A stretch of DNA of 64,000 nt from Escherichia coli (lineage in GTDB: Bacteria > Pseudomonadota > Gammaproteobacteria > Enterobacterales > Enterobacteriaceae), in assembly GCF_011045215.1 (NCBI RefSeq), contig NZ_CP049201.1; one strand, 5' to 3'. The translations under genes and the position numbers were made by a program. Under the pieces are notes generated by a model. The model searched no databases. It saw only the letters and a program-made list of their open reading frames with translations, and was not told the origin of the DNA. How positions within the stretch are numbered: position 1 is the stretch's first letter; each line of letters opens with the position of its first letter. Shown piece by piece: positions 6,598 to 12,447 of the stretch.

Positions 6598-6816
6598 TTA
6601 GATGATAAATGACAGCAGGAATGTGCCCGCCAGAGCGACGACTGAAGCGATAAATGTCGCTGTCGTATAGTATTTAAATGTTTCATTGAGCGTAGCGCCG
6701 CAATATTGCTTCACCAGCCAGAAAAGCGAGTCCGTAACGATCGTGCAGCCAATCGCGCCTGAACCGATAGCAATCGCAATAATTTCCGGGATGATGTCGG
6801 GATACAGCGGCAGCAC
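6598..6816 (-). pseudogene. dsdX: Remnant of D-serine permease dsdX (only about 72 C-terminal codons retained)
   Basis: 72-aa hydrophobic ORF directly upstream of dsdA, matching the C-terminus of a GntP-family permease; similarity ends near 6820 where the csc sequence begins. Confidence 0.75.
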
Positions 6817-7046
6817 AATGATCCATATTTATATTTTCTTCTCCAGGTTGGCGATGCCAGTTGGCATGTTTTACTTACTTGCCTATATGGTTACTCGTTG
6901 GCGAGAACAGAGGCGGAATTGGGGACAATTGTCCGGGAATTATTGTTATTTTTTATTGTATTGCCGTGTCAGGTGATAGGGCGTTGGATCTCGCCAGTGA
7001 CGTCTGTTTCTGCTACAGTGCCCGTTTTACGGCAAACGGCTTGGGT

Positions 7047-8042
7047 ATGGCTTCATTAAAGGATGTCGCACGCCTGGCGGGAGTGTCGATGATGACAGTC
7101 TCCCGGGTGATGCATAATGCAGAATCTGTGCGTCCTGCAACGCGTGACCGCGTATTGCAGGCAATCCAGACCCTGAATTATGTTCCTGATCTTTCCGCCC
7201 GTAAGATGCGCGCTCAAGGACGTAAGCCGTCGACTCTCGCCGTGCTGGCGCAGGACACTGCTACCACTCCTTTCTCTGTTGATATTCTGCTTGCCATTGA
7301 GCAAACCGCCAGCGAGTTCGGCTGGAATAGTTTTTTAATCAATATTTTTTCTGAAGATGACGCTGCCCGCGCGGCACGTCAGCTGCTTGCCCACCGTCCG
7401 GATGGCATTATCTATACTACAATGGGGCTGCGACATATCACGCTACCCGAGTCTCTGTATGGTGAAAATATTGTATTGGCGAACTGTGTGGCGGATGACC
7501 CAGCGTTACCCAGTTATATCCCTGATGATTACACTGCACAATATGAATCAACACAGCATTTGCTCGCGGCGGGCTATCGTCAACCGTTATGCTTCTGGCT
7601 ACCGGAAAGTGCGTTGGCAACAGGGTATCGTCGGCAGGGATTTGAGCAGGCCTGGCGTGATGCTGGACGAGATCTGGCTGAGGTGAAACAATTTCACATG
7701 GCAACAGGTGATGATCACTACACCGATCTCGCAAGTTTACTCAATGACCACTTCAAATCGGGCAAACCAGATTTTGATGTTCTGATATGTGGTAACGATC
7801 GCGCAGCCTTTGTGGCTTATCAGGTTCTCCTGGCTAAGGGGGTACGTATCCCGCAGGATGTCGCCGTAATGGGCTTTGATAATCTGGTTGGCGTCGGGCA
7901 TCTTTTTTTACCGCCGCTGACCACAATTCAGCTTCCACATGACATTATCGGGCGGGAAGCTGCATTGCATATTATTGAAGGTCGTGAAGGGGGAAGTGTG
8001 ACGCGGATCCCTTGCCCGCTGTTGATCCGTTGTTCCACCTGA
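7047..8042 (+). CDS. cscR: Sucrose operon repressor CscR (LacI/GalR family)
   Basis: N-terminal HTH MASLKDVARLAGVSMMTVSRV then periplasmic-binding-like domain; start chosen at internal ATG 7047 (331 aa) rather than ORF-track 6861. Confidence 0.85.
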   Translation: MASLKDVARLAGVSMMTVSRVMHNAESVRPATRDRVLQAIQTLNYVPDLSARKMRAQGRKPSTLAVLAQDTATTPFSVDILLAIEQTASEFGWNSFLINIFSEDDAARAARQLLAHRPDGIIYTTMGLRHITLPESLYGENIVLANCVADDPALPSYIPDDYTAQYESTQHLLAAGYRQPLCFWLPESALATGYRRQGFEQAWRDAGRDLAEVKQFHMATGDDHYTDLASLLNDHFKSGKPDFDVLICGNDRAAFVAYQVLLAKGVRIPQDVAVMGFDNLVGVGHLFLPPLTTIQLPHDIIGREAALHIIEGREGGSVTRIPCPLLIRCST

Positions 8043-8049
8043 TATTATG

Positions 8050-10613: not shown

Positions 10614-10684
10614 TGAGAAGTAAATGGCGAAGTCGCTCTTATCTCTAAATAGGACGTGAATTTTTTAACGACAGGCAGGTAATT

Positions 10685-11932
10685 ATGGCACTGAATATTC
10701 CATTCAGAAATGCGTACTATCGTTTTGCATCCAGTTACTCATTTCTCTTTTTTATTTCCTGGTCGCTGTGGTGGTCGTTATACGCTATTTGGCTGAAAGG
10801 ACATCTAGGGTTGACAGGGACGGAATTAGGTACACTTTATTCGGTCAACCAGTTTACCAGCATTCTATTTATGATGTTCTACGGCATCGTTCAGGATAAA
10901 CTCGGTCTGAAGAAACCGCTCATCTGGTGTATGAGTTTCATCCTGGTCTTGACCGGACCGTTTATGATTTACGTTTATGAACCGTTACTGCAAAGCAATT
11001 TTTCTGTAGGTCTAATTCTGGGGGCGCTCTTTTTTGGCTTGGGGTATCTGGCGGGATGCGGTTTGCTTGACAGCTTCACCGAAAAAATGGCGCGAAATTT
11101 TCATTTCGAATATGGAACAGCGCGCGCCTGGGGATCTTTTGGCTATGCTATTGGCGCGTTCTTTGCCGGCATATTTTTTAGTATCAGTCCCCATATCAAC
11201 TTCTGGTTGGTCTCGCTATTTGGCGCTGTATTTATGATGATCAACATGTGTTTTAAAGATAAGGATCACCAGTGCGTAGCGGCGGATGCGGGAGGGGTAA
11301 AAAAAGAGGATTTTATCGCAGTTTTCAAGGATCGAAACTTCTGGGTTTTCGTCATATTTATTGTTGGGACGTGGTCTTTCTATAACATTTTTGATCAACA
11401 ACTTTTTCCTGTCTTTTATGCAGGTTTATTCGAATCACACGATGTAGGAACGCGCCTGTATGGTTATCTCAACTCATTCCAGGTGGTACTCGAAGCGCTG
11501 TGCATGGCGATTATTCCGTTCTTTGTGAATCGGGTAGGGCCAAAAAATGCATTACTTATCGGTGTTGTGATTATGGCGTTGCGTATCCTTTCCTGCGCGC
11601 TGTTCGTTAACCCCTGGATTATTTCATTAGTGAAGCTGTTACATGCCATTGAGGTTCCACTTTGTGTCATATCCGTCTTCAAATACAGCGTGGCAAACTT
11701 TGATAAGCGCCTGTCGTCGACGATCTTTCTGATTGGTTTTCAAATTGCCAGTTCGCTTGGGATTGTGCTGCTTTCAACGCCGACTGGGATACTCTTTGAC
11801 CACGCAGGCTACCAGACAGTTTTCTTCGCAATTTCGGGTATTGTCTGCCTGATGTTGCTATTTGGTATTTTCTTCTTGAGTAAAAAACGCGAGCAAATAG
11901 TTATGGAAACGCCTGTACCTTCAGCAATATAG
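10685..11932 (+). CDS. cscB: Sucrose:H+ symporter CscB (LacY-like MFS)
   Basis: 415-aa, 12-TMS LacY-family permease; matches recalled CscB. Confidence 0.88.
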   Translation: MALNIPFRNAYYRFASSYSFLFFISWSLWWSLYAIWLKGHLGLTGTELGTLYSVNQFTSILFMMFYGIVQDKLGLKKPLIWCMSFILVLTGPFMIYVYEPLLQSNFSVGLILGALFFGLGYLAGCGLLDSFTEKMARNFHFEYGTARAWGSFGYAIGAFFAGIFFSISPHINFWLVSLFGAVFMMINMCFKDKDHQCVAADAGGVKKEDFIAVFKDRNFWVFVIFIVGTWSFYNIFDQQLFPVFYAGLFESHDVGTRLYGYLNSFQVVLEALCMAIIPFFVNRVGPKNALLIGVVIMALRILSCALFVNPWIISLVKLLHAIEVPLCVISVFKYSVANFDKRLSSTIFLIGFQIASSLGIVLLSTPTGILFDHAGYQTVFFAISGIVCLMLLFGIFFLSKKREQIVMETPVPSAI

Positions 11933-12372
11933 ACGTAAACTTTTTCCGGTTGTTATCGATAGCTCTATATCCCTCAACCGGAAAATAATAATAGTAAAAT
12001 GCTTAGCCCTGCTAATAATCGCCTAATCCAAACACCTCATTCATGTTCTGGTACAGTCGCTCAAATGTACTCCGGATACACGGTTCGCTGATTTCCAGGA
12101 CATTGTCGTCATTCTGCGACCTGTCCCGTGTATCACGGGCCTGCGAATTCATCAAGGAATGCATTGCGGAGTGAAGTATCGAGTCACGCCATATTTCGCT
12201 ATCAGGATTCTGTGTGATGGTTACATCGCCCGGCCCAGGGCTGTTTAGTCATCAGCGCTTTCTGACAGTGCTGAGATTTCAACCTGTTGCAGTAAAAATG
12301 AGTAGATATAAGGCAAATGTGCTGCCAAACCCATCTTTGACGGGGTGAAGGTAGATTTCGTTTGAAGGGTAT

Positions 12373-12447
12373 CTGGTGTCCCCTGCAGGAATCGAACCTG
12401 CAATTAGCCCTTAGGAGGGGCTCGTTATATCCATTTAACTAAGAGGA
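12373..12447 (-). tRNA. argW: tRNA-Arg (anticodon CCU)
   Basis: Reverse complement of 12373-12447 reads GTCCTCTTAGTTAAATGGATATAACGAGCCCCTCCTAAGGGCTAATTGCAGGTTCGATTCCTGCAGGGGACACCA, a 75-nt cloverleaf with CCU anticodon loop and CCA end. Confidence 0.9.

Follow-up and report, generated by a model that had tools for sequence, protein, structure and literature searches.

The 64-kb stretch of Escherichia coli DNA analysed here (the window) very probably carries the standard csc-type allele of the argW-dsd region, in which the 3′ end of argW and codon 374 of dsdX are separated by a 5.56-kb block. The foreign block (6817-12373) consists of cscR, cscA, cscK and cscB with short flanks and, by comparison with K-12, stands in place of dsdC and dsdX codons 1-373. 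This arrangement is already well known in E. coli and has been fully described in the literature, together with its consequence for D-serine, in strains EC3132, W and EDL933. It is an ordinary one, because about half of complete E. coli genomes have it. Moreover, chance is of no concern, since the evidence is exact gene content and synteny and involves no statistical pattern. The importance of the locus lies mainly in annotation, in that it places the strain among the ~49% of sequenced E. coli with a csc-type argW-dsd allele, which predicts slow use of high-concentration sucrose, sensitivity to D-serine and no D-serine catabolism. The csc-type allele is linked to niche, being carried by nearly all LEE-positive gut pathogens and almost never by urinary and meningitis strains. 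Small local additions are a DUF4942 relic in the spacer, a comparison of the empty with the occupied site, and a private L133P substitution in DsdA.

Structure of the locus

An earlier note on this DNA had placed the csc genes at the dsdC-dsdX position beside an unoccupied argW, and alignments against K-12 bear this out (Table 1). Identity to K-12 breaks within dsdX at window 6815/6816, where the junction converts the ATG of Met374 to GTG, and again exactly at the 3′ end of argW (...GGGGACACCA), from which the foreign DNA runs. The csc genes, flanked by argW and a truncated dsdX, sit where K-12 has dsdC and the greater part of dsdX. The K-12 comparison also places CPS-53 between argW and dsdC, as had been stated, and passages of PMC7486766, PMC4366372 and PMC3032704 likewise describe exactly such a layout, with csc genes replacing dsdC/dsdX in csc-positive strains.

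Table 1. Features of the argW-dsd region, in window coordinates.
Feature	Position	Strand	Support
dsdA, D-serine ammonia-lyase, 442 aa	5252-6580	-	TIGR02035 end to end, 809 bits (cutoff 368)
dsdX remnant, last 72 codons	6598-6816	-	K-12 DsdX aa 374-445; tblastn 97.2%; NF007395 positions 374-445 of 445
csc left flank, 230 bp	6817-7046	.	Upstream of cscR; without K-12 counterpart
cscR, LacI-family repressor of csc regulon, 331 aa	7047-8042	+	Pfam LacI HTH (PF00356) and Peripla_BP_1 (PF00532), full length
cscA, GH32 invertase (sucrose hydrolase), 477 aa	8050-9483	-	Glyco_hydro_32N (PF00251) and 32C (PF08244), full length
Divergent cscA/cscKB control region	9484-9698	.	Two palindromes and a CRP-like site
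cscK, fructokinase (PfkB family), 304 aa	9699-10613	+	NF006957 equivalog, 505.7 bits (cutoff 450), positions 2-302 of 302
cscB, sucrose:H+ symporter, LacY family, 415 aa	10685-11932	+	LacY_symp PF01306, 643 bits, residues 5-410, full length
DUF4942 gene relic, both ends truncated	12021-12248	-	Pfam DUF4942, E=2.8e-5
argW, tRNA-Arg(CCU)	12374-12448	-	ARAGORN; Rfam, 63.4 bits; identical to K-12
yfdC	12524-13456	-	Backbone gene flanking argW; identical to WP_000368131.1; K-12 gene order

All four csc genes follow as reported, with every frame uninterrupted and the family profiles covered end to end. CscR is identical to WP_001301925.1, its exact sequence occurs on at least 1,000 contigs, and its cluster includes an E. 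coli W protein named ‘sucrose operon repressor’. CscA (479 bits against TIGR01322, cutoff 356) and CscB are identical to WP_000194517.1 and WP_001197016.1, respectively. CscK has a single difference, N203D, from WP_001625589.1; the D203 allele is common, the exact sequence being found on at least 1,000 contigs. The orientation of cscA is that of dsdA and convergent with cscR, the two stop codons lying 7 bp apart. Upstream of cscR, the left flank presumably contains the cscR promoter.

The palindrome TGTTAACGTTAACT occurs twice in the cscA-cscK intergenic region (9517-9530 and 9581-9594), giving two candidate CscR operators. Within it, the 12-bp inverted repeat GTTAACGTTAAC is present at 9518-9529 and 9582-9593 and nowhere else in the window, where chance would give 0.06 occurrences. 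A CRP-like site, TGCGATGAATATCACA, is located at 9563-9578. The layout of these candidate sites agrees with the published csc control region, for which sections of PMC11251922, attributing the finding to Jahreis 2002, and of PMC3938415 give two 12-bp inverted repeats and a Crp site. Scanning 6.2 kb for consensus promoters yielded a single sigma-70-like site, which lies outside the control region; shuffled sequence gave more. A missing sigma-70-like consensus is not unusual for a CRP-dependent promoter, although it lends the csc reading no positive support.

At the dsd end of the block, the K-12 alignment, tblastn and NF007395 agree with the earlier count of about 72 remaining C-terminal dsdX codons; of the 445-aa permease only residues 374-445 are encoded and dsdX is not full length. 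PGAP annotates the remnant as a pseudogene in relatives, in two of them with the note ‘missing N-terminus’. A tblastn search with K-12 DsdC, the LysR-type activator, found no match within the 64-kb window, in agreement with the reported absence of dsdC.

At the other end, argW is indeed a tRNA-Arg gene, although it ends at 12448, one base past the 12447 first given; the tRNA was the sole match in an Rfam search of the region. The 15-bp att core used by CPS-53 lies in argW at 12374-12388 and is unoccupied. No integrase ORF was found next to argW, in 11933-12373 or beyond, and yfdC and mlaA come next, just as they do in K-12, in accordance with the claim that no integrase or prophage adjoins the tRNA. 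Moreover, a search that allowed up to 3 mismatches found no second att core (a pawZ-like attR) between the dsdX remnant and argW. In the close relative TUM13936, a 4.3-kb intS element with a copy of the 15-bp att core at each end is situated between argW and the same csc flank. Because TUM13936 shows the occupied form with the same csc flank, the window represents the empty-site form.

Distribution among complete genomes

The reference set comprised 5,426 complete E. coli genomes. The dsdX remnant/csc junction, scored with a junction-spanning 200-mer at a coverage of at least 80%, is present in 2,661 of them, and the region is colinear in 2,642/5,426. In 1,470/5,426 the csc flank directly touches argW, giving the same empty junction. 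A single copy of the cscB-argW spacer is present in each of 2,644 genomes, to most of which it is 97.5% identical, and the region as a whole reaches no more than 99.6% identity to any complete RefSeq genome compared.

A plasmid search returned full-length csc on four very large records only (0.37-4.9 Mb), with no sign of plasmid-borne csc. At least two of the records, those of about 4.8-4.9 Mb, have the appearance of chromosomes. The remaining plasmid matches are GH32 genes of ~73% identity, probably belonging to other sucrose systems.

Sucrose utilisation

By analogy with EC3132, W and EDL933, where these activities are established, sequence identity suggests that CscB would take up sucrose together with a proton, CscA would cleave it to glucose and fructose, and CscK would phosphorylate the fructose. 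CscR would block the divergent cscA and cscKB promoters via the two palindromic operators, and cAMP-CRP would activate them. CscB is wild-type at L51, C327, Q353, L363 and F371, which are known up-mutation positions. Barring an scr locus outside the 64-kb window, slow growth on sucrose is expected because CscR, the operators and CscB are all wild-type, such that csc should be expressed only when sucrose is high and glucose absent.

Published phenotypes are in line with this. The wild-type csc genes of strain W require >1% sucrose for induction (PMC3938415), and in a set of 29 commensal isolates with csc but no scr, 23 showed slow or very slow growth on sucrose, none showed fast growth, and five failed to grow, four of these five without a visible csc defect (PMC11251922). 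The earlier description of the strain as sucrose-positive holds insofar as four full-length csc genes are present, but is too strong given that csc-only strains are mostly slow and some show no growth. The same data bear on a rival reading, in which the csc genes are intact yet phenotypically silent, with no growth on or fermentation of sucrose under standard test conditions. We regard this as unlikely, albeit to be reckoned with: the sucrose-negative isolates, the absence of fast ones, the high threshold in W and a CscR, operators and CscB without known up-mutations would all fit it, whereas the 23 isolates that did grow, the match of all four proteins to widespread alleles, and the use of sucrose via the csc locus by W and EDL933, as passages of PMC7486766 and PMC3032704 describe, point to slow growth instead.

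D-serine and the orphaned dsdA

With both its activator gene and its permease gene missing from the locus, dsdA is orphaned. In frame but without DsdC and DsdX, it should be almost silent, and for that reason no growth on D-serine, and inhibition by it, would be expected. In EDL933, according to portions of PMC7486766, dsdC was lost and dsdX truncated through cscBKAR, and D-serine is toxic; E. coli W is unable to use D-serine (PMC3032704). That D-serine catabolism is likely not inducible, as the earlier note proposed, fits the D-serine-negative and -sensitive phenotype that the same arrangement gives in EDL933 and W in the relevant passages of PMC7486766, PMC4366372 and PMC3032704.

The description of dsdA as intact needs qualifying. 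The frame is full-length by TIGR02035 and the protein is identical to K-12 DsdA at 438/442 positions, but it carries a private Leu133Pro substitution (codon 6182-6184) with a possible effect on activity. The solved DsdA sequences of E. coli and Salmonella keep Leu at this position. An exact match to the 61-mer spanning codon 133 occurs in none of the 5,049 genomes with the 61-mer region, and the exact protein is known only as QIF12796.1/WP_164475573.1.

Loss of cscR by deletion puts dsdA under the cscA promoter, because dsdA follows cscA in the same orientation. Parts of PMC7486766 report such cscR deletions in EDL933, where they switch on dsdA from cscAp and restore D-serine tolerance. The 8-bp repeat of the EDL933 deletion LCV10B, CCGGATAA, is absent from the corresponding region here, where the candidates for ‘z3622’ are yfdC or the DUF4942 fragment. 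If L133P leaves dsdA non-functional, as it may, this known route of reactivation would be closed.

A related alternative needs no deletion: transcription from the sucrose-induced cscA promoter would continue past cscR, in antisense, and past the dsdX remnant to reach dsdA, making D-serine detoxification conditional on sucrose. The two genes are on the same strand, 1.47 kb apart. A minus-strand search after cscA found no convincing intrinsic terminator, and the 130 nt past the cscA stop are no more structured than their shuffled versions (z = +0.87). In EDL933 mutants, moreover, dsdA read density follows cscA after cscR deletion (PMC7486766, in the sections on these mutants). Yet the same sections report only background GFP from the wild-type cscAp-to-dsdA fragment and a wild type that is still D-serine sensitive, and name changed chromosomal context as the main driver. 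The DsdA here also carries L133P, which may affect its activity. We think read-through improbable and favour an almost silent dsdA.

Silencing at this locus would matter less if D-serine catabolism were kept via a second complete dsdCXA beyond the window. Many K1 strains have a second dsdCXA copy outside the locus. Across the reference genomes the dsdA 61-mer occurs as many as 3 times in one genome (5,250 sites across 5,049 genomes) and dsdC as many as 2 times; CE10 has two copies (according to part of PMC7486766), and a few strains have both loci complete (PMC11251922). We nevertheless hold a second copy to be very unlikely in this strain. The counts are near-complementary, with the csc junction in 2,661/5,426 genomes and dsdC in 2,734/5,426, and ~2,710 genomes match the uninterrupted dsdX side only. 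Because the two totals are almost complementary, co-occurrence of csc junction and dsdC is probably ~1%, as estimated from totals rather than per genome. The 64-kb window itself is free of any dsdC-like sequence.

Age and origin of the block

Both junctions occur in about half of complete genomes, and therefore the allele is old, inherited and recombined, and is not a recent insertion in this strain. The opposite reading, a mobile island newly landed at argW, could appeal to foreign DNA that begins exactly at the tRNA 3′ end, to a spacer relic of the gene that ends a CP4-type island (one example) and to four phage records with csc at the record end, but is effectively refuted by the population counts (identical junctions in ~2,660 genomes at 95-99% identity), with no integrase or second att copy, a GC content of 0.48 vs 0.51 that is no strong anomaly, and a divergence resembling that of the flanking backbone against it.

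The cscB-argW spacer (11933-12373) does lack a long ORF, as had been observed, but it measures 441 bp rather than 440 and is not empty, for it contains a DUF4942 relic. A 50-aa ORF (12012-12164, minus strand) is the open part of this relic. By tblastn, residues 76-151 of the 281-aa WP_049038750.1 match the spacer at 51% identity (E=1e-19), with a weaker frame-shifted stretch extending to ~12307. Paralogues at 72-77% DNA identity are full-length DUF4942 genes, and in the one example examined the DUF4942 gene closes a CP4-type island. We tentatively suggest, as a possibility that the odds do not favour, that csc came to argW as far-end cargo of a CP4-type island, of which deletion has since left only ~230-290 bp of the terminal DUF4942 gene, without either of its ends, and that the orphan dsdA is now decaying, as the private L133P might indicate. 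Such an origin, if true, would explain why foreign DNA starts at the tRNA 3′ end without an integrase or a second att.

Comparison with known systems

CP4-type islands (CP4-44/CP4-57-like) carry Ag43, antirestriction, RadC-like JAB, YeeU-CbtA, DUF957 and DUF4942 genes. The spacer shares with the one island examined ~230-290 bp related to the terminal DUF4942 gene, but this is a fragment only (residues ~38/76-151 of 281), with no other island gene, integrase or repeat. CPS-53 (KpLE1) in K-12 and the intS remnant in TUM13936 share with the window the tRNA and the 15-bp att core, CTGCAGGGGACACCA; intS is present in both, whereas the window has no intS and a single att core, with nothing integrated. 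Compared with dsdCXA of K-12 and CFT073, dsdA and the last 72 dsdX codons are colinear with K-12 and 97-99% identical, and emrY lies beyond dsdA as in K-12, but the K-12 pawZ-dsdC spacer is missing.

The closest likeness is to the csc regulon of EC3132, W and O157:H7 EDL933 (cscRAKB at argW-dsdXA), known from Bockmann 1992 and Jahreis 2002 as relayed in portions of PMC7486766, PMC3032704 and PMC11251922. The window has the same four genes in the same order, orientations and position, and its cscA-cscK intergenic region likewise contains the two palindromic operators and a CRP-like site. Judged from descriptions and RefSeq proteins, the differences are allelic only.

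Gene content and boundaries of the csc block

Gene order was established from the ORF list and a tRNA scan, and products were assigned from NCBIfam and Pfam scans. An earlier note, made by eye, had described an intact dsdA, about 72 remaining C-terminal codons of dsdX, no dsdC, and then cscR, cscA, cscK and cscB in order. All of this holds. DsdA and the four csc products cover their family profiles end to end. Profile and tblastn searches agree on the dsdX remnant, aa 374-445 being the sole match of K-12 DsdX to the 64-kb window, where K-12 DsdC had zero tblastn matches. The order of spacer and argW was also right, although the spacer had been put at 440 bp and the end of argW at 12447. 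The observation is correct throughout apart from these trivial coordinate slips.

Features of the dsdA-argW region (window coordinates)
Feature	Position	Strand	Evidence
emrY	3606-5144	+	ORF list
dsdA	5252-6580	-	TIGR02035, 809 bits, profile covered end to end
dsdX remnant (72-codon ORF)	6598-6816	-	DsdX model positions 374-445 of 445 only
cscR	7047-8042	+	LacI HTH and Peripla_BP_1, profile-length match
cscA	8050-9483	-	GH32 N- and C-terminal domains; TIGR01322, 479 bits; profile-length match
cscK	9699-10613	+	fructokinase equivalog NF006957, 505.7 bits (cutoff 450); profile-length match
cscB	10685-11932	+	LacY_symp, 643 bits; profile-length match
Spacer (441 bp)	between cscB and argW		
argW, tRNA-Arg(CCU)	12374-12448	-	tRNA scan
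yfdC, mlaA	beyond argW		ORF list

Alignment with the K-12 locus shows identity across dsdA and the 3′ end of dsdX, ceasing at 6815/6816, and at this junction the ATG of Met374 has become GTG. On the argW side, the window equals K-12 across yfdC and the entire tRNA, as far as the stretch ending in CTGCAGGGGACACCA. Past CTGCAGGGGACACCA it resembles neither the K-12 attL flank (prophage CPS-53) nor the attR flank (pawZ to dsdC), and the K-12 pawZ-dsdC spacer was not found in the window. Therefore, the non-K-12 block is 6817-12373 (5,557 bp), with a GC content of 0.48 versus 0.51 for the window. The region was searched for another 15-bp att core besides the one at the argW 3′ end, and none was found.

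Distribution among E. coli genomes

Replacement of dsdCX by csc is already known and very common. Connolly et al. found it in most LEE-positive strains and termed argW a recombination hotspot (PMC4366372). The argW region and dsdX flank csc in E. coli W, a strain unable to use D-serine (PMC3032704). By phylogroup, all of D and E and nearly all of B1 carry csc, which is rare in B2 and missing from A and F (PMC11251922). The reading of csc as standing in place of dsdC/dsdX beside an empty argW is thus upheld both by the K-12 alignments and by the identical published configuration.

Population counts were made over 5,426 complete E. coli genomes. Colinearity with at least 80% of 5000-13600 was seen in 2,642. 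A 200-mer with the dsdX/csc junction at its centre is covered in 2,661, and the cscB-argW spacer occurs in 2,644, almost always once per genome. The equivalent 200-mer at the spacer/argW junction is covered in 1,470, which thus have an empty argW as well. The 2,734 genomes with dsdC nearly complement the csc-junction set, and in about 2,710 the junction probe matches on its dsdX half alone. From these totals, rather than from a per-genome table, we therefore estimate that dsdC co-occurs in ~1% of csc-type genomes. Rather than an event in this strain, the csc arrangement is an old and major E. coli allele. The spacer of the window is 97.5% identical to those of most genomes. The source genome itself appears to lie outside the collection, since no complete RefSeq genome there matches 5000-13600 above 99.6%.

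Sucrose regulon

In published work on csc, sucrose is taken up by CscB and hydrolysed by CscA, with the fructose phosphorylated by CscK; cscA and cscKB share a divergent control region, on which CscR acts as repressor and cAMP-CRP as activator. The cscA-cscK intergenic region (215 bp) contains TGTTAACGTTAACT twice, at 9517-9530 and 9581-9594. The window has no further copy of this motif, for which the chance expectation is 0.06. Between the two copies is a CRP-like site, TGCGATGAATATCACA. This layout fits that attributed to Jahreis 2002, which PMC11251922 cites for "two copies of a 12 bp inverted repeat" and a Crp operator.

CscR, CscA and CscB are identical to RefSeq proteins of relatives, and an exact-sequence look-up places the CscK allele on at least 1,000 contigs. 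Moreover, CscB is wild-type at all five reported up-mutation positions (L51, C327, Q353, L363 and F371). The regulon is therefore predicted to be wild-type and tightly repressed. Gene integrity, regulatory motifs and synteny are the demonstrated steps; expression and phenotype we infer. In strain W, csc induction required >1% sucrose (PMC3938415, PMC6599523). The earlier description of the strain as sucrose-positive is too strong: no csc+ scr- isolate grew fast on sucrose, 23/29 were slow or very slow and 5 did not grow, 4 of these without a visible defect (PMC11251922).

D-serine catabolism and the DsdA variant

Provided that no second dsdCXA copy lies beyond the window, the prediction that D-serine catabolism cannot be induced, dsdA having lost its activator and permease, is well supported for the csc-type genotype. 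Sucrose-conditional read-through from cscA into dsdA is a minor possibility. The two genes are on one strand, separated by nothing but antisense cscR and the dsdX remnant, and a terminator sought after cscA was not found; however, in EDL933 the wild-type arrangement gave dsdA expression at background only, with activation only when deletions took out cscR (PMC7486766).

DsdA differs from that of K-12 at four positions. A417 and E435 are Salmonella residues, whilst T72 and P133 are not. The Leu133Pro codon lies at 6182-6184 (- strand), and the leucine is conserved in solved E. coli and Salmonella DsdA sequences. P133 sits a few residues past the SGSIKARGG motif, which we take to bear the PLP-binding lysine and to be followed by a helical segment. 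A 61-mer around codon 133 had no exact match in 5,049 complete genomes, and records of the identical protein are confined to QIF12796.1/WP_164475573.1, from one 5.41-Mb chromosome and one read-set assembly. The substitution could damage DsdA, in which case the orphan dsdA would be beginning to decay.

Neighbourhood and occupancy of argW

The spacer holds a gene relic at ~12021-12248 (- strand), which aligns with a 281-aa DUF4942 protein over aa 76-151 at 51% identity (E = 1e-19) and has a weaker, frame-shifted extension as far as ~12307. Its 50-aa open part, annotated by PGAP in many genomes, matches Pfam DUF4942 at E = 2.8e-5 (24.3 bits, slightly below the gathering score of 25). The relic lacks both ends of the gene, is oriented away from argW and accompanies csc in ~2,640 genomes. 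Full-length DUF4942 genes exist as its paralogues at 72-77% DNA identity. In the one CP4-type island examined, DUF4942 comes last, after Ag43, an antirestriction gene, a JAB-domain gene, YeeU-CbtA, DUF5983 and DUF957. The relic may be the scar of an island formerly at argW.

Elsewhere in the window, a 422-aa ORF at 14686-15954 (- strand; GC 0.30-0.35) is an allele of K-12 yfdF (352 aa) and has no NCBIfam or Pfam family match. It carries an internal duplication of ~55-70 aa, giving two copies of K-12 aa ~77-129. Only 3 contigs have exactly this sequence, and alleles of relatives range from 343 to 426 aa; yfdF is therefore a length-variable gene.

In four GenBank "phage" records (ON470594.1, ON470608, ON470622 and ON470589), the whole csc block or most of it stands at one record end, on the excisionase side. 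The record inspected, ON470594.1 (Escherichia phage vB_EcoP-683R2, classed as a P22-like Lederbergvirus), has csc at 147-5714. They probably represent argW prophages that were submitted together with adjacent host DNA or had excised aberrantly.

In K-12, CPS-53 lies between argW and dsdC, with intS adjoining the tRNA. In TUM13936 (NZ_CP134358.1), which among complete genomes comes nearest over the region (99.6% identity), a 4.3-kb CPS-53-like remnant (8875-13262 of the compared locus) with intS, a GT2 glycosyltransferase and an IS3 element lies between argW and the identical csc flank. TUM13936 thus shows the filled site of which the window is the empty version, confirming that argW is unoccupied here. 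The att core at argW marks one end of the remnant, and a copy with one mismatch beside the csc flank marks the other; therefore, the att site beside csc is still used by argW-specific elements.
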